The notes under the pieces: generated by a model
What the model was told of the DNA's origin: nothing
Seen by the model: the letters and a program-made list of their open reading frames with translations, nothing else
The model's database searches: none
Origin: Candidatus Wolfebacteria bacterium GW2011_GWE2_44_13
Lineage (GTDB): Bacteria; Patescibacteriota; Minisyncoccia; UBA6257; UBA9933
Reading direction: 5' to 3'
Assembly (NCBI GenBank): GCA_001000675.1
Contig: LCHW01000001.1
Location: 68,013-132,012, forward strand
Length of the DNA stretch: 64,000 nucleotides
In this document: in pieces, positions 7,981-61,825 of the stretch
Layout of the letters: each line of letters begins with the position of its first letter
Position numbering within the stretch: position 1 is the first letter of the stretch
Translations under genes and position numbers: made by a program

Positions 7981-7984
7981 CAGT

Positions 7985-19351: not shown

Positions 19352-19382
19352 AAAACACCAGCGCTCGCTGGTGTTTTTGTTT
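19352..19382 (+). terminator. Rho-independent terminator (family aacaccagcgc-N-cgctggtgtt, repeated three times in the island)
   Basis: Hairpin followed by tttttgttt. Near-identical copies at 20719 and 23390. Confidence 0.7.
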
Positions 19383-19410
19383 ATGCTCTCAATGTGGTAA
19401 AATAATTGCA

Positions 19411-19746
19411 ATGAGTTTTAAGGAAATAATAATAAAATATCGTATTGCTATCGTGATTGTAATAGTCGCGGTTACGCTTGCCATTTTTGGTATATATGTG
19501 ATGACGGGACGTAACGTTGCGCCGCCTATAGAAGAGCCCCCTCAATCTTCTGAACCCATTATTCTTACTCCTGAATTAACAAAAGTATTAATCAAGGAGA
19601 TGAGTGTTCCTACGACAACAGAGGTTCAAATGCCTAAAAATAAAATAGAGGAAGTTAAAAAAGAAATGTCAGTTGATCCTAAGAAAACTCCGCCAGTTTC
19701 TAGCGACACAATAAATAGCTTGCTCGATTCGATGAGTGCAAAGTAA
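19411..19746 (+). CDS. Small membrane-anchored hypothetical protein
   Basis: 111 aa with an N-terminal TM and a Pro/Glu-rich tail. A remnant paralog lies upstream at about 18.05-18.14 kb. Confidence 0.45.
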   Translation: MSFKEIIIKYRIAIVIVIVAVTLAIFGIYVMTGRNVAPPIEEPPQSSEPIILTPELTKVLIKEMSVPTTTEVQMPKNKIEEVKKEMSVDPKKTPPVSSDTINSLLDSMSAK

Positions 19747-19759
19747 TTATCACATCCTT

Positions 19760-20704
19760 ATGAAATCACCAAAACTACTTTCTCTTATATTATCAATTAT
19801 CATCACTACACTTGTAGTGTTTCTCGGTGTTTCTGCTGATTGGGCAGGTCCTGTAAGTGAACCACCAGATGGAAACGTAGCGGCTCCGATTAATATTGGA
19901 GGCAATGCACAATCAAAGTCTGGAGGTCTTATTGTTGGAGCAGGACTTACTGCTGCACAGACTGCACTTATTGTTCCTGCGGGGAATGTAGTCATCGGAA
20001 CGCTTACCCCAATAAATTCTGCTCCTAATGGAGCGGGAGGTAATGCGAGCGTAAACGATCTCTATATCCGCAGTATCGGTAAATGGGCTTCGCAGCTTTC
20101 TGTGGGTCCAGTTGCAGGGCCAGCTGCCTATTGCGGAGGAGTTGCATATGATGCGGAAAATGCGTATTGTCAAAACGACATTATTTATAACGTAGGGGAT
20201 TGGATTCCGCTCGACAACGACTCGAGCAACCAAACAGATCCAGCTGGAAATTGGTCAACACTTATAACAAAACAAGTAACATTTCCTGTTAAAACCTGTA
20301 AGCTAAAAGCACAGGCCGGCTTTAATGATGGAGGATTCGTTGCTGTTTTTGATGGCGCAGCTCGACTTGCCCTTTGGGAAAAGAATTTTACGATTGAAAA
20401 TATGGAAGCAGGTATCGGGCGGTTTTCTGTAAAAGATCAAAATAACCAAGCTTGCGGAGTTTCCGGTTTTGTTGACGGAGGGGACTATACACAGACTTTC
20501 TATACTTCCACTGCGCCCTATGTTGAGGGAGGGGTTTTGAAATGGTGCGGTTATGTTGCTTGGAGGAGTTCGGGAAGCGCTAATACGAATGAGTATACTG
20601 TTAGCAAAGCAAAGGGGACGACGGCAACTGTGTATTCGACGCATGCATTGGGGGATAGTGGAGATAATCATTCATACACGCTTTACGGCAAATATTGCAA
20701 TTAA
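19760..20704 (+). CDS. Secreted protein, paralog B of the conserved N-terminal-domain family
   Basis: Start MKSPKLLSLILSII by homology to MKSSKSLSILLSVI of paralog A. Mature N-terminus DWAGPVSEPPDGNVAAPINIGGNAQSKSGGLIVGAGLTAAQTALIVPAGNV. Unrelated Cys-containing C-terminal domain. Confidence 0.55.
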   Translation: MKSPKLLSLILSIIITTLVVFLGVSADWAGPVSEPPDGNVAAPINIGGNAQSKSGGLIVGAGLTAAQTALIVPAGNVVIGTLTPINSAPNGAGGNASVNDLYIRSIGKWASQLSVGPVAGPAAYCGGVAYDAENAYCQNDIIYNVGDWIPLDNDSSNQTDPAGNWSTLITKQVTFPVKTCKLKAQAGFNDGGFVAVFDGAARLALWEKNFTIENMEAGIGRFSVKDQNNQACGVSGFVDGGDYTQTFYTSTAPYVEGGVLKWCGYVAWRSSGSANTNEYTVSKAKGTTATVYSTHALGDSGDNHSYTLYGKYCN

Positions 20705-20718
20705 AGCGAGCTATAGCA

Positions 20719-20746
20719 AAACACCAGCGCGCGCTGGTGTTTTTTA
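20719..20746 (+). terminator. Rho-independent terminator (same family)
   Basis: aacaccagcgcgcgctggtgtt followed by ttttttat. Confidence 0.7.
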
Positions 20747-20948
20747 TCCGATTCGATTGCCATTACTATTGTAGGGGCAAATGGTGCAAAACTACGTGCG
20801 GTTCCATAAAAAGAGCCTAGAGCTCTTTTTATGAGGGGCGATTGTATATTCTACTCGGAAGATTTAAAATTAACAGTATTAACTAAAACATATAGCATCC
20901 TGTCGATTTAGCCACTAATTATAGGCTAAGTGCTCGATACCTCAAAAA

Positions 20949-29097: not shown

Positions 29098-30117
29098 ATG
29101 AAAATAGCATTCTTTCAAATAGAAGACTGGGAAATAGAACACATCAAAGAGCAGTTAGCGGGGCATGAATTATTTTTTACAAAAGATAAGTTGTCTGCAG
29201 AAGCCCTTCCTGCGGATCGTGATTTTGATATTGTGTCCGTGTTTGTCGGTTCAAAAATAGACCAGGCGGTTCTTGCGGCCTTGCCGAATCTTAAGCTCGT
29301 TACGACGCGTTCAACCGGGTTTGATCATATCGACCTTGCATTAGCGCAAAGCATGAATATTGCTACTGGCTATGTGCCAGGGTATGGTGAAAATACTGTT
29401 GCTGAATTTGCATTCGGCTTAATTCTCGCGCTTTCTCGTAAGATTTATGAGTCAGTCGATCGGCTAAAAGAAACTGGAGTGTACTCGTACGTCGGATTGC
29501 GTGGGTTTGACCTACAAGGGAAAACACTTGGCGTTGTGGGTACAGGACGTATTGGGCAGCACGTTATTCGTATTGCAAAAGGGTTTAGTATGAATGTTAT
29601 TGCATACGATGCATTCCCAAAGCCAGAGCTTGCAACAGAACTTGGATTCACCTACGCCACGTTTGATGAGTTGCTTGGCAAGTCAGATGTCATTACGCTG
29701 CATGTTCCGTATCTTCCATCAACACACCATCTTATCAATATGGAAAATATTGGGAAGATTAAGAAAGGGGCATTGTTGGTAAATACTGCTCGCGGAGCAG
29801 TTGTGGATACCGCTGCATTGGTAAAAGCGCTTGCAGATGGAATCTTGGGAGGCGCAGGGCTTGATGTATTGGAAGAAGAAGGCGTGCTTGCGGATGAAAA
29901 AACATTGGTATTGTATGGACATCCAGAAGAGCATAATCTAAAAACAGTTTTGGAAAATCATGTGCTGATTGATTTGCCGAATGTGTTGGTAACACCGCAT
30001 AACGCGTTCAATACACAAGAAGCATTACAACGTATTCTTGATACAGATATCTGTAACATTCAGGAGTTTATTGGACAGGGAGTTGCGAAGTGTCCGATTC
30101 CAGTGGCGAAGGCATGA
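29098..30117 (+). CDS. D-isomer-specific 2-hydroxyacid dehydrogenase (D-lactate/glycerate dehydrogenase family)
   Basis: NAD-binding GVVGTGRIGQ; catalytic R...E...H region (TARGAVVD, VTPHNA). Confidence 0.8.
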   Translation: MKIAFFQIEDWEIEHIKEQLAGHELFFTKDKLSAEALPADRDFDIVSVFVGSKIDQAVLAALPNLKLVTTRSTGFDHIDLALAQSMNIATGYVPGYGENTVAEFAFGLILALSRKIYESVDRLKETGVYSYVGLRGFDLQGKTLGVVGTGRIGQHVIRIAKGFSMNVIAYDAFPKPELATELGFTYATFDELLGKSDVITLHVPYLPSTHHLINMENIGKIKKGALLVNTARGAVVDTAALVKALADGILGGAGLDVLEEEGVLADEKTLVLYGHPEEHNLKTVLENHVLIDLPNVLVTPHNAFNTQEALQRILDTDICNIQEFIGQGVAKCPIPVAKA

Positions 30118-30150
30118 GATATGAGATTAGAGATGTGAGATAAGGAAAAC

Positions 30151-40094: not shown

Positions 40095-40240
40095 TAAACG
40101 AATGGGCTGTCATTCCCGCGGCCTGCTTCGTGTAAGAATAAATACTCCGCAGGCATTTCGGCACGTTGCACGCTCGCTCTACTCGCTAGCAACGCCAAGT
40201 CAAGGCGGGAGTCCATTTCCATTTTTAAAAATATCTTTTC
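40095..40240. repeat. Degenerate copy of the composite intergenic repeat (partial R1 hairpin + cggcacgttgcacgct...ctagcaacgccaag module)
   Basis: gctgtcattcccgcgg... and cggcacgttgcacgctcgctctactcgctagcaacgccaag match modules of the 51.0 and 54.1 kb copies. Confidence 0.6.
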
Positions 40241-47572: not shown

Positions 47573-47589
47573 AAATGAAATAGAAAACA

Positions 47590-47618
47590 AAAGGGACGCA
47601 TATGCGTCCCTTTTGTTA
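47590..47618 (+). terminator. Rho-independent terminator
   Basis: aaagggacgcatatgcgtccctt followed by ttgttatttt. Confidence 0.65.
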
Positions 47619-47639
47619 TTTTCGTGAATACGGGGATCT

Positions 47640-47865
47640 ATTTCCTTGTTCTTTTTTAAAAAAGAACCAAAAATCACGAACCGAAAATATTTTGGGGTCG
47701 CCTCCAAAACGGCTGAAGCTCGGAACTCGCACGCCAAGAGTAGGCTCGCTCAAACACCGAGCTTCTTTCGATATTTTTCCAGCGCCCTTGATCCGAAATA
47801 TTTCCATGTTCGTACGAAGGGGGAAGTCCCTATCTTTGTCATTCCCGCGGAGGCGGGAATCTATT
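47640..47865. repeat. Composite intergenic repeat element (variant a) ending in the R1 hairpin tgtcattcccgcggaggcgggaatc (47837-47861)
   Basis: Shares ccgaaaatatttcgg...gaagctcggaactcgcacgccaag...caccgagcttctttcgatatttttccagcgccct.gatccgaaatatttccatgttcgta with 51.05-51.19 kb and 54.19-54.33 kb. Confidence 0.7.
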
Positions 47866-47927
47866 TAATAAAATCAATATAGGTGATATTTGGCCAACTG
47901 AGGCTATCTACTGTATAATGAATTATT

Positions 47928-49184
47928 ATGAAATCATACGAAAAGATAGCAAAAATATTGCGCACCGATCAGGACACAATCCGCGTCGTGGAAGAGCGCC
48001 TCTCCGCTTTAACGGGGAAGGTTGGTGTGCTTGATAAAGTCATGGAAGAAAACTGGACTGCAATCCAGGGAAGGTTGAATATTCTTGGACTCACGCGCGA
48101 GTCTTCTGCAAAAGAAATTTATGATGCGCTTATTAGTAAGATAGAAGCCGATGACGCGAGCTTTTATAATGCGCTTGGCAAGCCGCAAGTAACTGAGCCA
48201 GATGATTGGCAGCGTGTTTTGAATATTATCGTCGAGGCCATCAAACCGCCTAAGGGATTTTTCTTAAAAAAAGAAAAAGCGATAGAGTTTTTGCGTGCCG
48301 AGCCTCCGACGAAGGTTATTGAGGCACTCGGGTATGATACCGTAGATCAATTGATTGAGCAGGAGGATCTTATGGAAATATATTGTGCGTTGCGATTCTT
48401 ACAGGGAGGAGAGTGGCTCAATACTGTATTCTTCAAACAATACGAGAAAGTAACCCCTGAGGACTTCGAAGAGCGTGATATTACGCCTATTGCATTGCAA
48501 AAGAAATGGGGAGTGCTTGCGGAGGGCTTCATGAAAAAGAAGTACCATAACATCAGCCACTTAAAGGAAATGGGAATTATTTATGTTATCCCATTGCCGC
48601 TTGAAATCTCTGGGGAAACATTGCGCAACCTCGCGTTGCTATTGCACTACTTTAACGAAATTCCTTTCTATACAAGTATTATCAAGAAGTTTTCAGGCAA
48701 TCCGGAAACGTTTGTAGAAAACTTAAAATCGCTCTTGCGTGGAGATGTGCTTGACGTGCAACCAGTAGCAGAAGGGGATAAAATGCCGTGGATGGTTGTG
48801 CAACGATACCTTGCAAAAGATGATGAATTTGACTGGCGCTTGTTTGCCCCTCATATCAATCCAGAAGCTTTGCATTGGGAGAAGGCCGAACATCAGCTTA
48901 TGGCAGTTGCCCGTTCAATTGATGGATTTTCTACCGACCTCGCATTTTGGAAGAATTTAAACTGGGTTGGTGATTACTTCAAGAGTGATGCCGGCATTGA
49001 TGTGTTGGTAAGTTTTAACCTTGTTGATACTGCTATGGCATTGGTACAGCAGAAAGAGATGGTTAAATACCTGTATCACCACCAAGAATCCATGTGGAAC
49101 AAAATATTTTTGGAATATTTCGGACAAGAAGAAATGGAAGAAATGATGAAGGAATATATTGTGAAGGGGTATATGGAGATATAA
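47928..49184 (+). CDS. Hypothetical cytoplasmic protein
   Basis: 418-aa ORF; no motif recognised. Confidence 0.4.
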   Translation: MKSYEKIAKILRTDQDTIRVVEERLSALTGKVGVLDKVMEENWTAIQGRLNILGLTRESSAKEIYDALISKIEADDASFYNALGKPQVTEPDDWQRVLNIIVEAIKPPKGFFLKKEKAIEFLRAEPPTKVIEALGYDTVDQLIEQEDLMEIYCALRFLQGGEWLNTVFFKQYEKVTPEDFEERDITPIALQKKWGVLAEGFMKKKYHNISHLKEMGIIYVIPLPLEISGETLRNLALLLHYFNEIPFYTSIIKKFSGNPETFVENLKSLLRGDVLDVQPVAEGDKMPWMVVQRYLAKDDEFDWRLFAPHINPEALHWEKAEHQLMAVARSIDGFSTDLAFWKNLNWVGDYFKSDAGIDVLVSFNLVDTAMALVQQKEMVKYLYHHQESMWNKIFLEYFGQEEMEEMMKEYIVKGYMEI

Positions 49185-49215
49185 GAGAGAGCTCGCTAGC
49201 TCGTAAGGAAAGCAC

Positions 49216-49665
49216 AAAGGAGCGCGTACGCGCTCCTTTGTCATTCCCGTGAAAACGGGAATCCATCTCCTCTGCACTTTTTCAAAAAAGTGTATCCGTC
49301 GGATTCGGAATGGAATAAGCGAATCCGACAGCCCGGCACGTTGCACGCTTGCTTCGCTCGCTAGCAACGCCAAGGGCAAAACTTCGAGCGCCGAAAATGG
49401 CGGAATAGGCTCTAAAATTTCTAACAAAACTACGAACTCGCTCCTGCGCACCGCTCAGACAACGTAGTTTTTGACCTGCCTGCCGGTAGGCAGGGGAAAT
49501 TTTTATCGCCTATTTTGTCCGCCATTTTTCGGATGCTCGGGGGATACAGATTAATACAGTTTATTAATCCGAAATATTTCCATGTTTGTACATAGAATGC
49601 GCTACCGTTGTCATTCCCGTGCATTGCCTTGTCGTAGCTTTACGCGAAGACAGGAAAACGGGAAT
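49216..49665. repeat. Composite intergenic repeat: hairpin, R1 (49239-49266), variant-b module (49267-49590), and a long-loop R1 (49603-49665)
   Basis: Near-identical to 7577-7875 over more than 150 bp, and to the 50.94-51.05 / 54.10-54.19 kb modules (gtcggattcgg...cgaatccgacagcccggcacgttgcacgctt). Confidence 0.7.
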
Positions 49666-49706
49666 CCATATATCGCAATATATGCTAATTTTGGTATACT
49701 AAACGC

Positions 49707-50381
49707 ATGAACTTTCTGGTACTTCTTCTCGGGTTAATTCCTAGCTTTATTTGGCTTAGTTTTTTCTTGCAAGAAGATATTCATCCTGAGCCACGAAAGA
49801 TGATTTTTGCCGTTTTTATTACCGGAGCGCTTGCAGCGTTGGGTGCATATTTTATTCAGTTATGGCTAAGTGGTTATTTCCCTGCGGGCAGCGAGTTTAC
49901 GCATTCCTTACTCTATATTGCTGCATTTGCAGGAGTGGAAGAGTTTGTTAAATTTCTAGCCACATATACCGTTATTTGGCGAAGTGCCTATTTTGATGAG
50001 CCAATCGATGCAATGGTGTATATGATGACGGCTGCAATGGGCCTTGCTGCTGTTGAAAATATTGCAATCGCATTTGATACAGGCATTGCGGCGATTACGG
50101 TTGGTTCGCTTATGTTTCGTTTTCTTGGAGCAACGCTTTTACATGCATTAAGTTCACTCGTGATGGGATATTATTGGGGCAGAGGTATTATTAAAAAGCA
50201 TACTGCCATCTATCTTATGTGGGGTTTTATTATGGCAACGTTATTACATACCATCTTCAATTATCTTATTGTTGTATTTGACGCTGGTATTTTATATGCC
50301 ATTGGCGTGTTAATTCTTGCCGCATTCTTTGTATTTTATGATTTTGAAAAGCTTAAGAAAAATGATACTATTACCGTATGA
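49707..50381 (+). CDS. PrsW-family intramembrane metalloprotease
   Basis: EEFVKF, FDEPIDAMVY, AAMGLAAVEN and a conserved His (LHALSS) match PrsW (PF13367) motifs. Confidence 0.7.
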   Translation: MNFLVLLLGLIPSFIWLSFFLQEDIHPEPRKMIFAVFITGALAALGAYFIQLWLSGYFPAGSEFTHSLLYIAAFAGVEEFVKFLATYTVIWRSAYFDEPIDAMVYMMTAAMGLAAVENIAIAFDTGIAAITVGSLMFRFLGATLLHALSSLVMGYYWGRGIIKKHTAIYLMWGFIMATLLHTIFNYLIVVFDAGILYAIGVLILAAFFVFYDFEKLKKNDTITV

Positions 50382-50866
50382 ACAATGATACTAAAAAATT
50401 CTTTGAGAAACTGGCGGGAGTATCCGAACAGGAGGAATTTGAACCTCGATTGGCAAAGGTTGCTGCGGTAACCCCAACACAAGAAGAGGATGAGGAAATG
50501 GAAGATGAAGAGCAAGAAGGGGATTTCGAAGAAGGAGAAGGACAGCTTGCAATCGACGTGTACCAAATGGGAAATGATATTATCATTGAAGCCCCTGTTG
50601 CAGGAGTTGGTATGGACGACCTCGACCTTGAAATATCGCCCGAGTCTGTTGCAATTCGTGGAAAACGAGATCAACGCGAAAAAATAGCAGATAACGATTA
50701 TCTCTATCAGGAATGTTATTGGGGTAAGTTTTCTCGATCAATTATTCTTCCACAAGAAATTAATCCTGATCATGCAACCGCAACATTCAAAAATGGCGTT
50801 TTGCGCATTACCTTGCCTAAGGTGAATAAACAAAAGATGAAGAAGGTGAAGGTGAGATTTGAATAA
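50378..50866 (+). CDS. Hsp20/alpha-crystallin family small heat-shock protein
   Basis: C-terminal ATFKNGVLRITLPK (AxxxxGVLxxxxPK) plus an ACD beta-sandwich region. Start overlaps the PrsW stop. Confidence 0.8.
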   Translation: MNNDTKKFFEKLAGVSEQEEFEPRLAKVAAVTPTQEEDEEMEDEEQEGDFEEGEGQLAIDVYQMGNDIIIEAPVAGVGMDDLDLEISPESVAIRGKRDQREKIADNDYLYQECYWGKFSRSIILPQEINPDHATATFKNGVLRITLPKVNKQKMKKVKVRFE

Positions 50867-50873
50867 GAACGAT

Positions 50874-50900
50874 TAAAAAACCGACGTACGTCGGTTTTTT
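50874..50900 (+). terminator. Rho-independent terminator
   Basis: aaaaaaccgacgtacgtcggttttttt. Confidence 0.75.
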
Positions 50901-50907
50901 TGTAGTG

Positions 50908-51195
50908 TTATCCCCGTGAAAACGGGAACCCAGGTTTTCGCACTTTTTCAAAAAAGTACCTCCGTCGGATTCGGAATGGAATAATCGAATCCGACAGCCC
51001 GGCACGTTGCACGCTTACTTCGCTCGCTAGCAACGCCAAGGGCAAAACTTCGAACCGAAAATATTTCGGGGTCGCCTCCAAAACGGCAGAAACTCGGAAC
51101 TCGCACGCCAAGAATAAGCGTGCTCAAACACCGAGCTTCTTCCGATATTTTTCCAGCGCCCTTTATCCGAAATATTCCCATGTTCGTAAATAAAG
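50908..51195. repeat. Composite intergenic repeat (degenerate R1, palindrome gtactttttcaaaaaagtac, hairpin gtcggattcgg..cgaatccgac, variant-a 3' module)
   Basis: Collinear with 54070-54330 at high identity. Confidence 0.7.
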
Positions 51196-51275
51196 AATAT
51201 TATTTTTTGCTTGTGCGAGGATAACGTACTGTGCAGTATAAAAAACGATTCACTGAGTGAATCGCTTTTTCTTGT

Positions 51276-51357
51276 GTGCCCAGGAGAGGAATCGAACCTC
51301 CACTGATTTCTCAACACGATTTTGAGTCGTGCGCGTCTACCAATTCCGCCACCCGGG
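51276..51357 (-). tRNA. tRNA-Leu (anticodon CAA), type II
   Basis: Reverse complement is GCCCGGG TG GCGGAATTGGTAGACGC GCACGA CTCAAAA TCGTG TTGAGAAATCAGTG GAGGTTCGATTCCTC TCCTGGGC A. Confidence 0.85.
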
Positions 51358-51440
51358 CTTCATAAAACTATACGTATAGTATAGGGGAATTTATTTTTTT
51401 GTCAAAAACGCCCCGTATCGTGTGATACGGGGCTGTAGAT

Positions 51441-52274
51441 CTATCCTTCGAGCGCGTCCGGGGGGTGCGTAATCGGAGTGATTGAGAGAAATTGCTCAAA
51501 GCCCAAGGCTTCAAAGTAGTTCTGGATTTCCGTTCCGGCCGCTGACAGACACATCTGATGTGCATATGGCATATATGCGTCGATGGTAAGTATATTGCCG
51601 GCGGCAAAGTTTCTGTTGACCGCCGCCGCAACCATTCGGCTTAATGATGGAATCGATAGCGACTTAAAACTGAACTGCAAGTTTCGATCGTCGTCGAGAA
51701 GGAGGTATTGCGGTAATCCGTGTTGCTCCGCAATGATCGCTCCGAGCCGGTGATGGTGGAGACTAATGAAACGGCTCCGTAGCTTGGTATCTGCCTTGTG
51801 CTGATAGAGTGCTCCGACGAGGCGCCCGATGGGCAGGAATAATCCGCTAACCTCTGCTTTCCAGACATCTTCCGGCGGTAACTGCATCTGACGAGCCATG
51901 ATGCGTGAGATAACAGCCATGGCACAGCATTTTGCGCCAAGGATTTTCGTATTTGGATACTCGTGTGATGCACACAGGATGCTGATACCAACAAGCAGCG
52001 CTTTGCACTCATCGATTCCCATCGCATTCGCGATGTCCTGCAGCTCCTGCGGGCCTACAGATTTTTTCATGGGGAGCGCCGTTCGCATGATCCCCAAGAG
52101 GCGATCCGAGGTATTAAGGCAAACAATCTTCTTTAGCTCGACCAGCCACATTGCTCGTTCGCGTGCCTGCTTAAGGGCATTTACCGCGTGTTGTGCGCAT
52201 TCTGGATGCGCCTGCGTTACAATCTCGCGCAATTGCTTGTCGATTTGAGGCGTAGGGGCACTTATCTTCTTCAT
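51441..52274 (-). CDS. HDOD-like (HD-related output domain) signalling protein
   Basis: Start MKKISAPT with an SD (aggaaagga) upstream. Helical HD-like region with HHHRLGAIIAEQHGLP. Confidence 0.4.
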   Translation of the reverse strand: MKKISAPTPQIDKQLREIVTQAHPECAQHAVNALKQARERAMWLVELKKIVCLNTSDRLLGIMRTALPMKKSVGPQELQDIANAMGIDECKALLVGISILCASHEYPNTKILGAKCCAMAVISRIMARQMQLPPEDVWKAEVSGLFLPIGRLVGALYQHKADTKLRSRFISLHHHRLGAIIAEQHGLPQYLLLDDDRNLQFSFKSLSIPSLSRMVAAAVNRNFAAGNILTIDAYMPYAHQMCLSAAGTEIQNYFEALGFEQFLSITPITHPPDALEG

Positions 52275-52740
52275 AACTAGTTCCTTTCCTTTGCATAATT
52301 GTGGGGTACTAATTTCATATATACTCCTGTCGGAGGTATTTTTCAATACCCTAATGTGGAACAAATTGTCAAATATATCGTTATATCTAGTATTAGCACT
52401 ATATTCGCTATGAAACACATGCAATCACAACAATCTTATGTGCTCGGCAATAACCAGCCTATTACCTTCTTTGCAAAAGGTAATACTTTTTGCTTACTGG
52501 TTGGCCAAGGCTGTGTTTCTCGATATTGTGCACACTATCTTCCTATATAGTACGTGCGTGTATTGTGCGAAGACGATCTCGGCCAAATAGAAAGCCGAGA
52601 TTTTTTGTACGCAATCTATTTGGGGATAGCACATTGATAACTATATATAGGAAGGCTTGTTTGAGAAGGGGAGTGTTTCACATATTGCTTGGCGGATAAG
52701 ATTTATTAACCAGCAGCATAACCAAGAAAGAGGTGCAACC

Positions 52741-53958
52741 ATGAAAGGAAGTGAACTGAAGAAGCGGGTTTGTCGATTGATGTGGCTGTATTTTTTCATC
52801 ACGTTTACGTTTGGGTTTGGCCACGCATTTTTCTTCTCCACCTACTCCATCTACCTTATGAGTAAGGGGTTGGACCTGTTACAGATCAACGTCGTTAACT
52901 GCGTATTCATGGCCTCGGTATTCTTGTTGGAAATTCCAACGGGAGCATACGCCGACTTGTTTGGTCGCAAGCGTTCGTTTGTGACAAGCTGCTTCGTGTA
53001 TGGGCTTGCTATGATTATCTATTGGCAGGCTGATTCATTCTGGATCTGTATTGTTGCAGAATTGTTTGCTGCTCTTGGGGCGGCGCTACACTCGGGGGCT
53101 ATGGAAGCTTGGATCGTCGATTCAATGCGCATCGCAGGGCATCGCGGAGGATTGCGAACCCTTTTTCGCAGAGAGCATTACGTATCGCAAGTCGGTATTG
53201 TGGGAGGAAGTCTACTGGGTGCATATATTGCCCAATATGATCTCTCGCTTCCATGGCTTGTTGCGGGGGTATCGATGATTTTAGTTGGCATCTTTGCATC
53301 GTATGCTATGCAAGAAACTCCCATAACTGCACGAAAGACTCTGTCTGGTTTTGCATCTATAGGGCTCATTACTCGGGATAGCATTACCTACGGTGTGCGA
53401 CACAAAGGCGTCTTGTACATTATTTTATTTGGTAGTGTTTGCGCACTCTGTGTTCAGACAATGAACATGCAATGGCAAATACGCTTCATGCAGGATTTTT
53501 CTTTTAACCCGCGTCACCTTGGATGGACCTTTGTTGGCATCTCCCTCTTCATCATGATTGGCAATCGGCTTTCGACGAAACTCTCCTCACGATTTGGAAA
53601 GGGTCGGCGAGCGATTGTGCTATCACAATGCTTTACCGCAGGAGGCATTATTGCCGCCGGTTGGTTTACCTCAGTCGCTCCTGTCTTGATTGCATTTTAT
53701 GTGCACGAGATGGGGCGGGGTATGTTCGCACCACTCAAACGTGCGTACATGAACGAACGTATTCCGAGTGCGACACGCGCAACCATTTTATCGTTCGATT
53801 CGATGGTTGCGCATAGCGGAGCTTTTCTCGGATTACTCGGTAGTGGGCTTATTGCGAAACATTGGTCCATTGCCACTTCTTGGATGACTTCCGGCCTTTT
53901 GTTGATCGTTGCCATTCCCGTTTTCCTTTTCTTGAAGAATGGAGATGGAAACAAGTGA
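52741..53958 (+). CDS. MFS transporter (12 TM)
   Basis: Start MKGSELKK. Motif A-like GRKRSF (LFGRKRSFV) between TM2 and TM3. Twelve hydrophobic segments. Confidence 0.75.
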   Translation: MKGSELKKRVCRLMWLYFFITFTFGFGHAFFFSTYSIYLMSKGLDLLQINVVNCVFMASVFLLEIPTGAYADLFGRKRSFVTSCFVYGLAMIIYWQADSFWICIVAELFAALGAALHSGAMEAWIVDSMRIAGHRGGLRTLFRREHYVSQVGIVGGSLLGAYIAQYDLSLPWLVAGVSMILVGIFASYAMQETPITARKTLSGFASIGLITRDSITYGVRHKGVLYIILFGSVCALCVQTMNMQWQIRFMQDFSFNPRHLGWTFVGISLFIMIGNRLSTKLSSRFGKGRRAIVLSQCFTAGGIIAAGWFTSVAPVLIAFYVHEMGRGMFAPLKRAYMNERIPSATRATILSFDSMVAHSGAFLGLLGSGLIAKHWSIATSWMTSGLLLIVAIPVFLFLKNGDGNK

Positions 53959-53999
53959 GTACATAATGGCACCCAATACGGGTGCCATTTTTTTACATT

Positions 54000-54410
54000 G
54001 GCATTCCTGCCCGTTCGACAGGTTTAGGGTAAACTGCGGCGGGAATCCATTACCACTTCTAAGACAATATTCTTTCATACTTTTTAAAAAAGTACTTCCG
54101 TCGGATTCGTGTCGGAGTAATCGAATCCGACAGCCCGGCACGTTGCACGCTTACTTCGCTCGCTAGCAACGCCAAGGGCAAACCTTCGAACCGAAAATAT
54201 TTCGGGGTCACTTCCAAAACGGCTGAAGCTCGGAACTCGCACGCCAGGGGTAGGCGTACTCAGACACCGAGCTTCTTTCGATATTTTTCCAGCGCTCTTA
54301 ATCCGAAATATTTCCATGTTCGTAGATACAAGAGAGTAATTCTGTCATTCCCGCGGAGGCGGGAATCTATTTAATTCTGGATTCCCGCCTCCGCGGGAAT
54401 GACAGAAAGC
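54000..54410. repeat. Composite intergenic repeat, plus a 68-bp perfect palindrome formed by two inverted R1 hairpins (54343-54410)
   Basis: tgtcattcccgcggaggcgggaatctatttaattctggattcccgcctccgcgggaatgaca is self-complementary. The module at 54070-54330 matches the 47.6 and 51.0 kb copies. Confidence 0.75.
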
Positions 54411-54490
54411 ATTCGCCCTTTACTTTTGTGTGGGCTCGTAGGTATAGTAGAGACAGCAGTTACACAACGAGGAGGGGAGTGGAGGTGCGT

Positions 54491-54892: not shown

Positions 54893-54989
54893 AGCAGGAT
54901 ACGGGGCGCTTATTGCGCCCCTTTTTAATTCGGCAATCTAGTATTCATGCGGTATTATCCTATTCGGCAATAATACTATTGCCTAATAT

Positions 54990-55100
54990 GTTTTATCTAT
55001 TGCCGAATAAAAAGACTCTGGGTTCCTGTTTTCACGGAAATGACAATACAAAAGAATATAGCGAAAAATTCTGACATTCCCGCGCAGGCGGGAATCTAGC
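54990..55100. repeat. Two R1 hairpin copies (one inverted: ttcctgttttcacggaaatgaca; one direct: tgacattcccgcgcaggcgggaatc)
   Basis: Sequence match to the R1 consensus. Confidence 0.6.
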
Positions 55101-55171
55101 GCAACACACACTTCCCCCCCCTGCCGAACCCATGGTTGACACCTTGCCGAATTACCCTGTATCATACCCCC

Positions 55172-56173
55172 ATGATTAGTAACTACGAGTTTATCAAGAC
55201 GCAGGCATTCGAAGTTTCGTCTGCACTATTTCGGTGCACCGAATTATTTTCTCAAGACAAATTGCGCGCAGAAATTGAAGCTGCTGCAGTTGATATGGTC
55301 GCAGATTATGAAACAATACACAGCACAATAGGGGATGAATTTCCTCGTATTGAGAAGTTGATTGCACTTATCCGATTAGCGGAATCTACCGGACAAATTG
55401 CATCCATTAATGCGAACGTACTGTATCGAGAACTTGATAACCTTACTAAGGCGATTCGGTTAGAAGTTGTTGACCGCCGCGAACGGAAAAACATCACGGC
55501 ATCTTTGGAAAAGATGTTCACAAATTCCGAATATGCAAAGAAGCTCGCCACTACTGCAACGGTACTAAGTGAGCCAGTTAATTCGGCAACTACACCTTCT
55601 CCTACTCCTGTCATTCCCGTGAATATGGCAATCCAGAGCCCTGATAATTCGGCAAAACAAAAATTAAGCGATACTCAGTTCGGCAATATTGAATCCCTGC
55701 TTTCTGCAGCGGTCCAATCGAGTCAGGCAATGGAAGCCTTAGCAGCTCCTGTTAATCCGGCAACAGTTCCTGTACACGAAACGCTTAACGCGTTTTTGCG
55801 ACAAGACGTTCCGGCAAACGCGACACAGGGGGCTTCGGCAACTACCGAACCCACTCTTGCTAAACAGGGAAATGCAATCCAGCAGGCAACGGCGACCACG
55901 GCCGTTCGTCCGGCAATTGCTCCTGTGCAAGCTACTTCGGCAAACCCAGCGCAAGTCGGTTCGGCGAGCTCACCACAAGTAGGTTCATGGCAGCATGTCA
56001 TTTTACAAAAAGTGAAGGAGCTCGGCCAAACAACAACAAAAGAGTTAACTGCCAGCTTCCCAGAAATCAGCGAACGAACTATTCGTTTCTATCTGCAAAA
56101 GCTTGTTGATAACCAGGCAATAGATCGTATTGGTTCAACTGGTCCAGGAGCAGCATATCGAGCTAAAATATAA
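55172..56173 (+). CDS. Hypothetical protein with a C-terminal winged-helix DNA-binding domain and a central Ala/Pro/Thr/Gln low-complexity region
   Basis: C-terminal ...LGQTTTKELTASFPEISERTIRFYLQKLVDNQAIDRIGS resembles DeoR/MarR-type wHTH. The start is probably MISNYEF. Confidence 0.4.
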   Translation: MISNYEFIKTQAFEVSSALFRCTELFSQDKLRAEIEAAAVDMVADYETIHSTIGDEFPRIEKLIALIRLAESTGQIASINANVLYRELDNLTKAIRLEVVDRRERKNITASLEKMFTNSEYAKKLATTATVLSEPVNSATTPSPTPVIPVNMAIQSPDNSAKQKLSDTQFGNIESLLSAAVQSSQAMEALAAPVNPATVPVHETLNAFLRQDVPANATQGASATTEPTLAKQGNAIQQATATTAVRPAIAPVQATSANPAQVGSASSPQVGSWQHVILQKVKELGQTTTKELTASFPEISERTIRFYLQKLVDNQAIDRIGSTGPGAAYRAKI

Positions 56174-56214: not shown

Positions 56215-56245
56215 CATTGTCATTCCCGCGGAGGCGGGAATCCAG
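56215..56245. repeat. R1 hairpin repeat
   Basis: ttgtcattcccgcggaggcgggaatccag. Confidence 0.7.
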
Positions 56246-56374
56246 TATTCCCTAGTATATTACAGGGTATCCTCGCCTTCGGGAGGATAACGCCTTCTTG
56301 CTGTGAAACAATCCGCAAATACCCACGTTATCTTGTAGTATGGATGCATACTAGTCACAAACTGGTCTCAGTTG

Positions 56375-56700: not shown

Positions 56701-56740
56701 CTGAAAAAACGAAAAGCGAACAATGAATGATTGGATTGGT

Positions 56741-56775
56741 ATTCCCGTGAAAGCGGGGATTCATCCCCATGAATC
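56741..56775. repeat. R1-like hairpin variant (attcccgtgaaagcgggga-ttcatccccatgaatc)
   Basis: Match to the R1 family, with a second small hairpin. Confidence 0.5.
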
Positions 56776-56805: not shown

Positions 56806-59800
56806 ATGAGCATAGTATTTAAAAAGCTTTCTATCGTTGCTCTCTCGCTCGCCCTTTTGGCAGGCGTTGTTTCAACTCCGGTTGCAAACGGCGCTACGAA
56901 CGAGGAATTACAGGCACAGATCTCTGCTATGACAGCGCAGATCAATGCCCTCCTCGCTCAGCTTGCTGGAACTCCGGCGACAGTAGCAACAACCCCAGCA
57001 ATGTCTTCATACACGTTTACCCGCAACCTCACTGTTGGGTCAACTGGTGCAGATGTTATGGAACTCCAGAAGTTCCTCGTTTCCTCAGGGCACTTGGTCC
57101 TTGCAAATCCAACCAACTATTTTGGTAACATGACCAAGGCAGCGTTGGCAAAGTTCCAGGCAGCTAATGGCATTTCGCCAGCAGTTGGATACTTCGGACC
57201 ACTCACCCGTACTTCAGTGAACGGAATGATGACCCCAGTAACTCCAGTAACTCCAGTTACTCCAGTAACTCCAGTAACTCCAGTAACTCCAGTTGTAACG
57301 TCTGGCGCAGTATCTCTTGCTTCTACTAACCCAGCAGCAGGATACATCGTAGCAGGACAGGCAGGAGCACGTTTGGCAGCTATCCAGTTCTCAGGAGCAG
57401 GATCAGTAACCAGCCTTGTTCTTAAGCGCACTGGTCTTTCGACCAATGACGTATTGACCAATGTCTACTTGTATGATGGAAATACTCGCATCACCGATGC
57501 AGCTTCTATCAATGCAGAAGGCGTAATCACTTTCAACAATCCTTCAGGGCTGTTCACAGCTCCTAAGACCGTTGAAGTTCGTGCAGATGTAACCTCGACC
57601 GCTACTGGACAGACCACAGTTGCAATTGAAGTTTCTTCATACACTATGTCAGGTGGAACTGCGACTGCAGTTACCGGCATAGTTGGAAACACGATGCAGA
57701 TGTCAACCGCAGCTTTGGCCACGGTTACTATGCAGACCAATAACCAAAATCCGAACAACACTACTTCCTTGAGCGTTAATGCTGGTACAGTTAACCAGAA
57801 CGTTTGGGATGTAACCTTGAACGTCGGAACTCGTGCAGTATCGTTGAAGGGACTTACATTTAAATATGTAGGATCAGCTTCATCTGATGCAGTAGGAAAC
57901 CTTGGCGTTTACGTTGACGGAGTAAAGGTTGGTTCAACTGCAACCGTAAATGCCATGGGCCTTGTTGCCTTTGACTTTACTGCAGCCCCAGTAACTCTTA
58001 CGACAGGAGCACGCACTATTCAGTTGCGCGGTGACTTCGTAAAGGGTTCGAACCGATCTGCTCAGTTCTACGTACAGAACTTGGCTGACTACATGATTGA
58101 AGATACGCAGGTTATGGGAGCATTTATTTCCCCAACCAGCGGAGCAAACGTCTATGGTTACAACTTTAACATCCAGTCAGGATCTATCGTTGTAAATCAG
58201 GATCAAACCTACTCAGCTACTCAGGTAGTTGGTGGATCTTCAAACGTTAACCTTGGTAAGTTTACCTTCAAGGCATATGGTGAAGATGTAAAAATCGAAA
58301 CCTTGGTCTTGACCCCGTCAGGAACTTTCACTGGATGGACTTCTGGTGCAAATATCCAGAATGTAACCTTGTATGTAAATGGTGCAGCTGTTGGTTCTTC
58401 ACAGAACTGGAGCCCAACCACTTCAGCAACACTTACTTTCAATCCAGGTGCAAACATGATCATTCCAGCTGCAGGAGTTTCTACTCTTGAAGTACGTGGA
58501 GATCTCCGCGATGGAGCTGGTGTGAACTACACTGGAGGAACCGTACAGGTTGACGTAACTTCCTTTGTTGGACGAGGACAGCAGTCACAGGCAACTGTTA
58601 CAAGCGCCTCTGCAACAGGACGAAACTTGACCATTGGTTCAGCCACAGTTAGCTTCTCAAAGACTGGTGGATTCTTGGGTTCAACTGTTACTCCAAATGC
58701 AAACGCAAAGATTGGTTCATTTACACTTTCAAACTCAAACTATGAGGATGTACGCGTAACGAACTTGTCTGTTGGCTTGCTCTTTGGTGCAGGTATGACC
58801 ATCACCAACGTTTCAAACCTTCGCGTATCTGACTCAGCAACTATCGTTGCTCAGCCAACCGCAGACAGCAACTTCTCTATGGATGTTGTTGTTCCTATGA
58901 ACTCAACTAAGGTATTCGAGATCACTGCTGACCTCGGTTCAACTGCCTCTACAACGGCAACTGTTACCGCAAATGCAACCTCTTCATACCGTGGCGTAAG
59001 TTCAGGAGTTTCTACAACTGCAGGTGCAGCTGGTGTAGCTATGACAGCTAACACCGCTACTCTTGTAGCAGCAGATGTTACCAAGTTGTCTTCATCAGCT
59101 CCTTCTCAACTTGTTGTTGGAGGAACTGTTATGCCAACCGTTATTTATAACGTAAAGTCATCAACTGCTCCAGTAACAATCACGGAATTGACCTTTGACG
59201 CCGCTACTTCAACCGATGCAATCACTGCTATTAAGGTTGGTGGTGTTACAAAGACAATCACTGCTTTGACTGGAAACGTTGTCACTGGTTTGAACATTGC
59301 TGTTCCAGCTGGTGCGTCAGGATTGAACATTCCAGTTGATGTTACTTTTGGAACTGTAAACACAAATGGTGGAATCGCTTCGCAGCCTACTGCGGTCGAC
59401 ACTATTACGCTTACTGCCGTTAAGTACACCAGTGGAAACACTACTGATACCGTGACCACAGCTTCTACTACGCTTGTTTCTAACGCTATGCAGCTTGTTG
59501 CTTCTAAGCCAAGCTTGACCGTTAATGGAACACAGCAGGGTGGATTGTTGCTTGGTTCTGAGAATAAGATTGGTGAAGTTACCGTTATTGCAGATGCAAA
59601 GGGTGACATCAAGTTGAATCTCTTGACATTCAATATTGGATACTCAGGATTCTCAACTGGTCCAGCTCTTTCAGGTGTTCGCATCGCAGATGGTTCAACA
59701 ACTATCAGCGGAACAACTGCTACGACAACAACGTCAACGACCTCACCAGTTATTACTGTTGACTTCGGTGATGCCGCAACCAGCAGCGATGGATACTCTA

Positions 59801-60003: not shown

Positions 60004-60275
60004 GCTAACGCTTACTGTTTGATTGAATTCTCTACCCTTGAGACACTTCGGTGGCTCAAGGGAAAACATAAAATTTTTGTATCGGTCTCACTACTCCTGT
60101 AATAGGTGTGTGTGACTCGGCTAGCCTCCTCTTGTCTTTCCGCCCAAGGCGGACAGGTAGGGGAGGGTGGTCCGAGAAAAGCTGATGCAATAACAAAAAC
60201 ATTGAATCTTTTATCGAAAAGGATAAAAGAATAAAAATTATTGGTCCGTTGATTCACGCAAGCCTTCGAGACCTG

Positions 60276-60300
60276 CCATTCCCGTGAAAACGGGAATCCA
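60276..60300. repeat. R1 hairpin (ccattcccgtgaaaacgggaatcca)
   Basis: Match to the R1 consensus with a GAAA loop. Confidence 0.7.
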
Positions 60301-60460
60301 GAGCCCTTAAAGGGAATCGCGATAAACCAATCAAATCCCATGTATTACATTCACCAGGTGTGAATGGAAAACGAAAAAATTTCATGGTCGACGCAAGACA
60401 TTTTCATGACTGCGTAGGCAGGCTCATGTGAATGATGACCATGATCAATAAAATACTTTC

Positions 60461-60535: not shown

Positions 60536-60600
60536 GGGGGTGCCCGCCGTACGGCGGGCACCCCCCTCATGTATTGTCATTCCCGCGCAGGCGGGAATCC
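60536..60600. repeat. GC-rich 14-bp-stem hairpin (gggggtgcccgccg-tac-ggcgggcaccccc) followed by R1 hairpin 60575-60600
   Basis: Perfect inverted repeat, then ttgtcattcccgcgcaggcgggaatcc immediately upstream of the GIY-YIG gene. Confidence 0.65.
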
Positions 60601-60616
60601 AGTACAATAAAATAAT

Positions 60617-60902
60617 GGACCGATACTACTATGTGTATTTATTGGCGAGCAGGAAAAATGGAACTCTTTACGTAGGGGTTACTAATAATTTAAAAAGAAG
60701 AATAGCTGAACATAAGGATGGATGGGTTGGAGGATTTACAAATGATTACGGCGTAAATAGATTGGTATATTTTGAGCAAACAACAGACGTACGAAGTGCT
60801 ATAGCGCGTGAGAAGGCTATAAAGAAATGGAATAGACGATGGAAGATAGATTTAATTGAACAAGAGAATAAAGAATGGAATGATTTGTTTGAAATAATAT
60901 GA
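60617..60902 (+). CDS. GIY-YIG nuclease family protein (small URI-domain endonuclease, COG2827-like)
   Basis: YYVYLLASRKNGTLYVGVTNNLKRRIAEHK has the GIY-YIG core (YxYxL...GxxYxGxT.NL.RR...H). 95 aa. Confidence 0.85.
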
Positions 60903-60917
60903 AATGAATTCTAGCGC

Positions 60918-60948
60918 ATTGTCATTCCCGTGAAAACGGGAATCCAGA
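60918..60948. repeat. R1 hairpin (ttgtcattcccgtgaaaacgggaatccagag) immediately downstream of the GIY-YIG gene
   Basis: Match to the R1 consensus. Confidence 0.7.
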
Positions 60949-61000
60949 GTGCGAGTTCTTTGTATTGTACGGCATCTTTTTGCAGTATCGTCTTTACATT

Positions 61001-61038
61001 TTGTTACAATATTTCGCGACCGCGAAATATTGTAACAA
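61001..61038. repeat. 38-bp near-perfect palindrome ttgttacaatatttcgcg-ac-cgcgaaatattgtaacaa (copy 1)
   Basis: The 18-bp arms are exact reverse complements. An identical copy lies at 61788-61825. An extra half-site gattgttacaaaaatc is at about 61074. Confidence 0.85.
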
Positions 61039-61163: not shown

Positions 61164-61748
61164 ATGTATACCGACGACATATTAGGCATGATAGAAGAGT
61201 TTGATGATATCACCACGGGTGGCCTCTTTTCTTTGTTATTTTCGTCTTATTCCGATCTTCGTAAAAGAGGTAATGATTGGTTGCCTCCAGATGAGTTTAA
61301 AGCCGCGCAGGAGCGCTCAGAGCGCGATATACGGCGCAAGCGCTACCAACGGATGGTAAATTTAGTCTGCTATTTAAAGCGACAAGGCCTTGTTGAGCAA
61401 AAGGAAAATAGTATTTTAAAGTTAACGGAAAAGGGGCTTTTGCGATTACAGAAAAACGCGACTGTTTCAAGATACGTTCCCCTTTCTAAGGGATATAAAA
61501 CAGAAGACGATCATCTAAAGGTTGTTATTTTTGATGTGCCTGAGAAGCGGAGAAAGCATAGGGAATGGCTTCGCTTCAGTTTGCAGAATCTTGGTTTCAA
61601 GTTGCTTCAAAAGAGTGTTTGGATTGGAAAAACAAAATTACCACAAGAGTTTTTTGATCAATTACATGGGTGGGAATTATTACCGCATGTACATATTTTT
61701 GCGGTGCAAGAAACTGGATCAATTGGATTTGAAGATAGGGAGCATTAA
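61164..61748 (+). CDS. PaaX-like transcriptional regulator (N-terminal winged helix + C-terminal Cas2/VapD-like fold)
   Basis: wHTH-like VNLVCYLKRQGLVEQKENSILKLTEKGLLRL. C-terminal LKVVIFDVPEKRRKHREWLRFSLQNLGFKLLQKSVWIGK resembles the PaaX C-domain / Cas2-like beta-alpha-beta-beta pattern. Confidence 0.45.
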   Translation: MYTDDILGMIEEFDDITTGGLFSLLFSSYSDLRKRGNDWLPPDEFKAAQERSERDIRRKRYQRMVNLVCYLKRQGLVEQKENSILKLTEKGLLRLQKNATVSRYVPLSKGYKTEDDHLKVVIFDVPEKRRKHREWLRFSLQNLGFKLLQKSVWIGKTKLPQEFFDQLHGWELLPHVHIFAVQETGSIGFEDREH

Positions 61749-61787
61749 TGATACCCGAGTATTTTTTGAAAGAATGCTATTATTTAT

Positions 61788-61825
61788 TTGTTACAATATT
61801 TCGCGACCGCGAAATATTGTAACAA
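61788..61825. repeat. 38-bp palindrome, copy 2 (identical to 61001-61038)
   Basis: Exact sequence identity with copy 1. Together they bracket the PaaX-like gene. Confidence 0.85.

Follow-up and report, generated by a model that had tools for sequence, protein, structure and literature searches.

Background

The genome of Candidatus Wolfebacteria bacterium GW2011_GWE2_44_13, a member of the candidate phyla radiation (CPR, Parcubacteria) from Rifle groundwater, carries between its genes a family of composite repeats, which raises the question of what these repeats are and by what process they come and go. The stretch of DNA analyzed here (64,000 nt, hereafter called the window) is a part of a 541-kb contig from the Rifle aquifer. 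The original prediction, made from the letters of this stretch, described six copies of a modular intergenic element and offered two alternatives for its nature, a non-autonomous mobile element or a multicopy structured non-coding RNA (ncRNA). In the present work we found that the repeat units are bounded by a hairpin that closely matches the known single-stranded DNA target of the Ssn nucleases, a family of small GIY-YIG enzymes, and that a candidate gene for such a nuclease is located ~6 kb from the units. Our interpretation, to which we assign a probability of about 0.6, is that the units are non-coding, non-autonomous hairpin repeats akin to the intergenic mosaic elements of Neisseria (NIMEs), bounded by Ssn-related motifs (SRMs) and turned over via Ssn nicks and homology between their modules.

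NIMEs consist of RS family repeats of about 50-150 bp flanked by dRS3 elements; their arrays vary between strains and they were said to be absent outside Neisseria (PMC1797815; Parkhill 2000; Bentley 2007). The related hairpin known as the Neisseria Transformation Sequence (NTS; 28 nt, CGTCATTCCCGCGMAVGCGGGAATCYRG) was linked to a nuclease in a recent study, according to which NTS-like SRMs are bound exclusively as single-stranded DNA and in one orientation only (Chenal et al. 2025, PMC11893778). The binding protein, SsnA, is a 94-aa single-domain GIY-YIG nuclease, which cleaves a few bases 5' of the hairpin, does not bind RNA, and loses its activity upon mutation of Y6, Y17 or E64; nicking 5' of the SRM was demonstrated in vitro for four homologues (PMC11893778). 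Genes of the ssnA family, found across phyla, typically have an SRM on either side, and the arrangement NTS-ssnA-NTS was noted by the same authors to resemble an insertion sequence and was compared with the repetitive extragenic palindromes (REP) and bacterial interspersed mosaic elements (BIME) (PMC11893778).

Results

Repeat units bounded by an Ssn-type hairpin

Repeat finding, multiple alignment and searches with nhmmer profiles recovered the same six copies in the window (C1-C6, Table 1) and no others, exactly those that had been predicted. A seventh copy (C0) was identified on the same contig, 5.9 kb to the left of the window start (locus L063, 3021-3232; loci outside the window are denoted by L and a number), and all seven are oriented on the + strand. 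All six window copies align with each other, and they contain the previously named modules in the order given for them, namely a palindrome, the gtcggattcg hairpin, an agcccggcacg...caaaacttcgaa block, either of two 3' variants, and the shared end atccgaaatatt(y)ccatgttcgta. The starts of the units had to be moved, since nearly every unit begins with an SRM hairpin that had not been mentioned, which places the true starts ~25-70 nt further to the left.

In its fixed order a unit thus comprises the SRM hairpin, a palindrome (P), an optional pair of hairpins (S-M), a long hairpin (of type A, B or C), and a terminal motif (E). The blocks bracketed by SRMs measure ~190-330 bp, and E is separated from the next SRM by a spacer of 17-25 nt and of variable sequence. 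Every unit is located directly past the point where the upstream gene has its intrinsic terminator, and ahead of the promoter of the next gene. According to the gene map, ~1380 of ~2450 intergenic bases (56%) in the 47.6-54.4 kb region belong to its four units and their flanking hairpins, and the earlier statement that the elements fill most of the intergenic DNA of this region therefore holds.

The hairpin itself has the form TGTCATTCCCGYG-N4-CRCGGGAATCCA, spans ~30 nt and occurs at least 13 times in the window. It is near-identical to NTS, and judging from its sequence it closely matches the known Ssn target. The pattern ATTCCC-N8-GGGAAT, by which dRS3 is defined, has 10 exact matches in the 64 kb (0.00 expected), and a search for the 24-nt core with up to 4 mismatches allowed revealed 8 perfect copies (~0.1 expected). 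The published SRM regular expression is matched 3 times in the window versus 0.2 times expected, and many of the window hairpins, which have a GGAG loop, fail this strict definition. The motif is over-represented, mostly intergenic and oriented, with ~19 occurrences on the + strand versus 3 on the - strand. Five of the six window units start with it and the sixth, C2, lies within a split SRM; a 3' SRM follows E and the 17-25-nt spacer in C3, C4, C6, C0 and in a copy from another locus (L059). Almost all units hence have an SRM at their start and a variable spacer, just ahead of the next SRM, at their end, the pattern expected from cuts made 5' of SRMs.

Three of the hairpins are interrupted by inserted DNA. 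In two cases, C2 and a copy in L006 (10250-10381), the insert is an S-M pair, and the 40.1-kb copy, formerly regarded as simply degenerate, is in fact an S'-M unit inside a split hairpin. The insert in the left split SRM of C6 includes cgttcgacagg. An array of five SRM hairpins, which differ slightly in flavour, precedes C1.

Two further observations concern the hairpins. A 20-nt mini-hairpin, CCTGCCTGCCGGTAGGCAGG, is present in identical form inside an SRM variant (7370-7389) and inside the B body of C4 (49475-49494) and is absent from C1, the other B copy; it has the appearance of one more module that inserts on its own. Convergent pairs, in which an SRM is followed after ~10 nt by an inverted SRM, occur three times in the genome (window 54330-54427; L063 1028-1087; L062 16392-16451), and the pair in the window has a sub-threshold Rfam match to the Francisella small RNA FtrB (33 bits versus a gathering score of 66, E=0.015), a hint at a possible overlap of FtrB with a repeat of the SRM type.

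A candidate Ssn nuclease between two hairpins

The original prediction made no mention of the gene for a 95-aa protein, whose sole domain is GIY-YIG (Pfam, E=6.8e-17). It is bracketed by SRMs, one 9 nt upstream and the other 17 nt downstream of the open reading frame (ORF), and the SRM-ssnA-SRM arrangement extends over 60574-60951. More than 1796 single-domain homologues of ~95 aa were found, with 60-72% identity across phyla, and their invariant residues include Y8, Y19 and E66, which correspond to Y6, Y17 and E64 in the numbering of the homologue P0085. This distant relative (67% identical), encoded in a chromosome of 2.4-3.5 Mb (locus L060), is bracketed by the same GTCATTCCCGCGAAAGCGGGAATCCA hairpins, among them split forms with a GTTCGAC insert motif, as in the left hairpin of C6. 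Searches of NCBIfam and PDB with the protein sequence returned generic GIY-YIG/UPF0213 matches only. With its catalytic residues conserved, the 95-aa protein is a candidate Ssn nuclease.

Just outside the window, genes for DprA and two N-methyl pilin-like proteins were found (L063 5345-6211; L062 14760-17735). DprA is a DNA-processing protein of natural transformation, and the vicinity of these genes bears on the possibility that incoming single-stranded DNA is a substrate of Ssn.

One architecture in three diverged sequences

The predicted fold of each unit as single-stranded DNA is a row of independent hairpins. P is AT-rich (GTACTTTTTCAAAAAAGTAC and variants), S has the form GTCGGATTCG-N12-CGAATCCGAC, M the form GGCACGTTGCACGC...GCTAGCAACGCC, and the long imperfect hairpin measures ~136-165 nt and exists in three interchangeable types. 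All three types have inverted ends (CGAAC..GTTCG or CGAGC..GCTCG) and arms of 10-25 nt. The A body begins and ends with CGAAC-N3-AAATATTTCGG ... CCGAAATATTYCC-N3-GTTCG, and the E motif forms the 3' arm of its basal stem; the base of the B body is CGAGC...GCTCG, with E outside the hairpin; type C, which a relative (L055) carries at its C4 site, combines a B-type base with arms that are almost wholly different. The statement that the elements lack terminal inverted repeats consequently needs correction for the A body. The conserved unit as a whole, SRM-P-S-M-body-E, is asymmetric, and the inverted ends are those of the long-hairpin bodies.

Compared with dinucleotide shuffles, the single-stranded DNA folds are very stable (z-scores -6.0 for A in C5, -8.6 for B in C4 and -8.7 for C in L055). 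A profile of the A type finds B bodies weakly (E=0.002), and this match together with the divergent arms of C indicates that one architecture has been kept across three strongly diverged sequences. Variable columns are rarer in stems (14/86) than in loops (24/62; p=0.004).

The strand of the units is also consistent between genomes. In 10 of 11 copies from four genomes the top strand of the unit is the G-rich strand (the skew at the eleventh is near zero), and it is the same strand that carries the SRM in the orientation cut by SsnA; this coincidence fits a strand-specific process on single strands. If the G-rich strand is the leading one, the hairpins would lie on the lagging-strand template, where they would be transiently single-stranded. 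The same bias toward the lagging-strand template is known for IS200/IS605 elements from the biology of IS608, which transpose via single-stranded hairpins.

Units gained, lost and replaced among relatives

Syntenic sites were compared by means of the 418-aa gene that separates C3 from C4, whose orthologues were retrieved from relatives at increasing distances. Empty sites, whose existence in related genomes had been proposed as a check, were found for C2, C3 and C4. Loci L051-L053, with 86% amino acid identity and the same gene order, contain no composite unit, and in L051 the spacer between the genes for the 417-aa protein and PrsW is 36 bp long, while its counterpart in the window has 522 bp. 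L055 (88% identity), L054 (82%) and L051 all lack the C3 block: in L055 the terminator leads directly into a conserved TTGGCC...TATAAT promoter, and L054 and L051 have no extra block either. C2 is absent from the orthologous site of L051, where the adjacent leader sequence is conserved. The C4 site was found in as many as four states, with a B body in the window, an A body in L002, a C body in L055 and the empty 36-bp spacer in L051.

L002 comes from a 2012 assembly of the same species, and its flanking protein is identical to that in the window. Its A-type unit differs in the SRM loop and in the variant of P, and no copy of the window matches it; an assembly chimera was considered as the source of the difference and rejected, because the L002 version is unlike every window copy. 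In three other Wolfebacteria assemblies, copies were found in unrelated gene contexts. The A bodies are 89.3% identical within genomes and 88.9% between them, and orthologous genes of the closest relatives share only 67-77% of their nucleotides.

We also considered sites of the integron attC type, i.e. hairpins situated behind co-oriented genes. This reading was rejected, since the flanking genes are a syntenic core and it is the hairpin blocks that turn over, and since the bases of the stems are unlike RYYYAAC/GTTRRRY.

Searches beyond the relatives gave no further units. Plasmid and phage collections contained no similarity to either element type. The pattern TCCGAAATATTYCCATGTTYGT had a single match among GTDB representative genomes, a chance one in a coding region of Flavobacterium, and ATCCGAAATATTYYCAYGYTYG matched 42 loci in metagenome contigs, none of which contained another module (in 41 of them the match is to the beginning of a signal peptide from gut bacteria, and the remaining one, L032, with 43% GC, looks like chance).

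Table 1. Positions of the repeat units, solitary hairpins and the candidate nuclease gene in the window
Feature	Position	Strand	Composition and remarks
SRM-type variants upstream of C1	7351-7547	+	gtcattccggc(..cctgcctgccggtaggcagg..)gccggaatc 7351-7403; gtcatcctgagc..gaaggatc 7411-7445
Further variants in the array before C1	7455-7482; 7491-7547		7455-7482 reversed; 7491-7547 split, gtcatcccgta(..)tacgggatcc; read directly
C1	7550-7804	+	SRM 7550-7582, P 7585-7604, B body 7614-7757, E 7781-7804; no S-M, no 3' SRM; followed by a terminator-like hairpin and tRNA-Ile(UAU)
C2	40108-40215	+	split SRM (gtcattcccgcg ... cgggagtccat) around an S'-M two-hairpin insert; S-M partial, 40130-40200, with M at ~40156-40200
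C3	47613-47868	+	degenerate SRM 47613-47645, P' 47648-47667, A body 47677-47814, E 47791-47814, canonical 3' SRM 47836-47868; beyond it the start of a long H-to-P linker, resembling a truncated next unit
C4	49238-49668	+	SRM 49238-49270, P 49274-49293, S 49298-49329, M 49330-49384, B body 49383-49545 with nested mini-hairpin 49475-49494, E 49567-49590, split 3' SRM 49609-49668
C5	50905-51188	+	degenerate SRM 50905-50937, P 50940-50959, S 50964-50995, M 50996-51050, A body 51051-51188, E being its 3' arm; no 3' SRM
C6	54002-54410	+	split SRM ~54002-54049, long linker, P ~54076-54096, S 54100-54131, M 54132-54186, A body 54187-54324, 3' SRM 54342-54374, inverted SRM 54378-54410 (-)
Solitary SRM	~55020-55050	-	
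Solitary SRM	55071-55103	+	
Solitary SRM	55608-55640	+	within the 333-aa ORF
Solitary SRM	56217-56249	+	
Solitary SRM, degenerate	56736-56768	+	
Solitary SRM	60273-60305	+	
SRM directly 5' of the nuclease gene	60574-60606	+	fits the published SRM regular expression
Candidate ssnA	60615-60902	+	95-aa single-domain GIY-YIG protein
SRM directly 3' of the nuclease gene	60919-60951	+	fits the published SRM regular expression

Other features of the locus

Two of the units adjoin tRNA genes: C1 is followed by the gene for tRNA-Ile with the unusual anticodon UAU (7908-7981), and downstream of C5 the gene for tRNA-Leu(CAA) is located on the opposite (-) strand (51276-51358). Another cluster of tRNA-like genes is present ~7-7.7 kb to the left of the window start (L063 1200-1840), one of them with an apparent long insertion (ggggtgtagctcagt...about 60 nt...ggttcgaatccc); in this cluster ARAGORN calls a tRNA-??? 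with a two-base anticodon beside a tRNA-Gly(ACC). Introns, or some other departure from the usual tRNA form in CPR, may account for these genes.

Past the nuclease gene, a perfect 39-nt palindrome, TTTGTTACAATATTTCGCGACCGCGAAATATTGTAACAA, occurs twice in exact form (61000-61038 and 61787-61825), on both sides of a 194-aa ORF (61164-61748) with a PaaX central (Cas2-like) domain; the palindromes may serve this regulator as operators, or they may delimit a small cassette. The octamer TTCGGCAA is present 15 times in the window versus 3.8 times expected, with 9 occurrences within 1 kb (54929-55943). This cluster surrounds and enters a 333-aa ORF with a helix-turn-helix (55172-56173), similar motifs exist at the orthologous place in L051, and the octamer could represent either a binding site present in series or a repeat at the level of codons.

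The remaining repeats in the window are of diverse types. A 9-bp tandem repeat, ACTCCAGTA, present in ~7 copies (57232-57294), codes for a Thr-Pro-Val repeat in a 1065-aa protein with a peptidoglycan-binding domain. The region 17923-20782 contains two adjacent paralogous gene segments with blocks of 75-85% identity at a distance of ~1.6 kb (18093/19697 and 18416/20021), and one of the two genes encodes a glycine-rich domain. A purine-rich motif, GAGA(T/C)NNGAGATGAGAGGTNAGAGAT, is found just past three stop codons (4197-4222, 7264-7289, 30116-30141), and similar tracts of the 'gaaat/gagat' type were seen behind genes in the relatives L051 and L054.

Discussion

Alternative explanations

The first alternative is that the units are miniature inverted-repeat transposable elements (MITEs) moved in trans by a transposase of a conventional kind whose gene is located in another part of the genome, such as a Y1 enzyme of the IS200/IS605 type or a REP-associated tyrosine transposase (RAYT), and that they lie close to SRMs because both prefer the same permissive spots behind terminators. 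Inverted ends are indeed present on the long hairpins of all three types, insertion polymorphism is observed, some copies have no SRM on one side, and solitary SRMs are also frequent behind terminators. However, no transposase domain was found in the ~82 kb of the host genome covered by the analysis (out of ~0.55-0.6 Mb), and no target-site duplication was seen in the aligned filled and empty sites, the flanks of which are strongly diverged. Moreover, a simple MITE does not explain why SRM, P and S-M stand in fixed order and spacing 5' of the inverted-repeat body, and a direct link between these modules and the SRM is evident from two genomes in which S-M lies within an SRM loop. We regard the explanation by MITEs as unlikely.

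The second alternative, which corresponds to the other half of the original prediction, is that the hairpins act as RNA, in a multicopy structured ncRNA family or in cis-acting 3' untranslated region or leader structures transcribed together with the neighboring genes. The folds predicted for RNA are very stable on both strands (z=-3.9 for +, -6.5 for -), the three divergent types of the long hairpin share one architecture, the window copies are co-oriented with the flanking genes, and their sequence is well conserved between genomes. On the other hand, Rfam 15, at the gathering score and at E<=1 alike, matched nothing but tRNAs, apart from the sub-threshold FtrB match to the inverted SRM pair, no family being found for the units. 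Promoter-like sites are at the chance level (14 versus 12.6 expected) with none at the unit starts, and the units follow intrinsic terminators. Among 8 A bodies from four genomes, which are too alike to be very informative in this respect, the covariation term is +0.83 and two-sided changes affect 2 of 42 stem pairs, so that the compensatory differences proposed earlier turned out to be few. G.T and A.C mismatches, counted as 6 versus 8 in one way and as 12 versus 6 in another, are reported as balanced, i.e. neither strand exhibits an RNA-type wobble signature. Units are missing at syntenic sites of close relatives, modules are shuffled among copies, and Ssn does not bind RNA (PMC11893778). 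Of the two alternatives originally put forward, the mobile element is thus favored by the empty and replaced sites, while a role as RNA appears decidedly unlikely.

According to the third alternative the arrays are kept by the host, as stacks of terminators or insulators, as stabilizers of mRNA 3' ends resembling REP/BIME, or as signposts for recombination or for restriction of transformation, as proposed for NTS in Neisseria. The constant place between a terminator and a promoter agrees with such a service, and an SRM with its T-rich tract scores as terminator-like. SRMs cluster near hypothetical and cell-surface-type genes at 54-61 kb, the nearby DprA and pilin-like genes are consistent with natural competence, and there is a model for Neisseria (PMC11893778). 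Nevertheless, syntenic relatives have no units at the same genes, the body type differs at one and the same site, and no gene class is consistently associated with the few copies seen. As the main explanation of the arrays a host service is improbable, but it overlaps with turnover via Ssn and is compatible with it.

Finally, the minus-strand ORF (MEIFRIKGAGKIS...) that recurs in the units is annotated by gene callers in several assemblies, but its coding nature can be virtually dismissed and it is a by-product of DNA identity, as the original prediction held, since the three codon positions carry similar numbers of substitutions (14/11/10, p=0.69), frameshifts are present in two of 7 copies (L006b and L007), one of which (L007) also lacks the ATG, the C-terminus is set by whichever module adjoins, and the only relatives among 5.8 billion proteins are five that come from the same Wolfebacteria DNA element. 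Public annotations contain spurious hypothetical proteins of 60-100 aa in the units (window 47602-47868, 49249-49467, 50948-51181 and 54084-54317; e.g. UW32_C0001G0111/0115 and UT41_C0001G0167/0456), and assemblies tend to break there, L002, L003 and L004 all terminating inside units.

Relation to known systems

Comparison with NIMEs reveals the closest parallels. The 20-bp inverted repeat ATTCCC-N8-GGGAAT and its GTC...C(C/T)AG flanks are the same; in both cases the hairpin brackets repeated non-coding blocks of several families in intergenic arrays (here C3, C4, C6, L063 and L059, with A, B and C bodies); the content of arrays differs between strains, and ssnA co-occurs. The differences concern the host, here a CPR bacterium with a ~0.6-Mb genome instead of Neisseria, the size of the blocks (~190-330 bp versus 19-214 bp), the fixed order of the internal hairpins as opposed to "whatever lies between dRS3s", and the number of families, of which only a few have been seen here to date whereas Neisseria has more than 100 RS families. 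Because the host is outside Neisseria, we classify the elements as NIME-like rather than as NIMEs. The match to the Ssn/SRM system (PMC11893778) includes the ~95-aa single-domain GIY-YIG protein with catalytic Tyr/Tyr/Glu, encoded between two motifs, and the over-represented, oriented and mostly intergenic motif; the published description, though, is of a hairpin and an enzyme and not of ordered multi-hairpin cargo, and the Wolfebacteria enzyme is a candidate by its sequence.

Several other systems share some of these features. REP/BIME with RAYT in E. coli and Pseudomonas also form mosaics behind genes, intergenic elements in which short hairpin repeats are joined to other motifs, and they are tied to a single-copy nuclease/transposase for single-stranded hairpins, an analogy drawn by the discoverers of Ssn as well; but the enzyme here is a GIY-YIG protein and not an HUH Y1 transposase, the hairpin is unrelated to REP, and no RAYT was found in the 82 kb. 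Palindrome-associated transposable elements (PATEs), derived from IS200/IS605, are likewise hairpin-rich, strand-specific and non-autonomous, but neither TnpA nor TnpB was found in the same ~82 kb, there is no match to omega-RNA or HEARO-type families of Rfam, and the ends differ. BOX elements of Streptococcus pneumoniae (boxA-boxB-boxC) and the ERIC/IRU repeats of enterobacteria are modular or long imperfect-palindrome intergenic repeats of ~100-300 bp. Like the Wolfebacteria units they have no coding capacity, a strong predicted structure and modules that vary between copies; unlike them, they are not known to be bracketed by a hairpin recognized by a nuclease, and no sequence similarity between the two is known.

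Proposed mechanism and points that weigh against it

From our analysis, the best explanation of the arrays is that they are the equivalent of NIMEs, located in the permissive gap between terminators and promoters, and mobilized or recombined, as we infer, through the action of Ssn on single-stranded DNA. The SRM would fold when DNA becomes single-stranded, on the lagging-strand template or in incoming transforming DNA, and Ssn would bind the folded hairpin and nick a few bases 5' of it. Such nicks, combined with homology between modules, would lead to copying, exchange and deletion of SRM-delimited units, from which both the mosaic structure and the turnover at the level of strains could arise. 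The inner hairpins may assist this process in cis, or they may be spacer DNA that hitch-hikes along with the SRMs.

Several points weigh against this interpretation. The analysis covered ~82 kb of a genome of ~0.55-0.6 Mb. SRMs are missing at the 3' side of C1, C5 and L006b and at the 5' side of C0 and L006b. Neither a target-site duplication nor a precise excision junction can be defined in the aligned filled and empty sites, because the flanks in the relatives have diverged too far. The high identity of A bodies between genomes could reflect a function at the level of sequence instead of transfer. Besides, GIY-YIG enzymes cut DNA and to our knowledge have no ligation activity, which leaves the joining step unexplained.

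A bolder and rather doubtful version is that the segments from SRM to SRM are true mobile units, with Ssn cutting 5' of an SRM and the strand comprising this SRM and its cargo being re-inserted or copied at another SRM or at a site close to a terminator. If so, Ssn/SRM would be an active, hairpin-guided GIY-YIG mobile-element system, with the ssnA cassette as its autonomous member and with non-autonomous members in the form of the P-(S-M)-long-hairpin-E units; these would require the conserved long hairpin as a structure acting in cis, and the origin and spread of dRS3/NTS/NIME arrays would become testable in a minimal genome.

Conclusions

Previous work had already described the hairpin (as dRS3 in 2000 and as NTS/SRM in 2025), the family of nucleases and the concept of arrays. 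In the literature searched, there is no description of SRM/Ssn arrays in CPR bacteria, nor of SRM-bounded cargo; new are the host, the P-(S-M)-A/B/C-E family, and the filled, empty and replaced alleles for cargo other than ssnA. In practical terms, the units break assemblies and give rise to spurious "hypothetical proteins" of 60-100 aa in CPR annotations.

In pathogenic Neisseria, NIME arrays have for 25 years been a hallmark that lacks an explanation, and they were considered specific to this genus. The same logic of hairpin, nuclease and array in a CPR genome of ~0.6 Mb implies that the phenomenon is general, and it provides a small and simple system, in which SRM-bounded cargo other than ssnA is gained, lost and swapped between near-identical strains. 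This turnover supports, but does not prove, the view of Ssn/SRM as a system similar to mobile elements.

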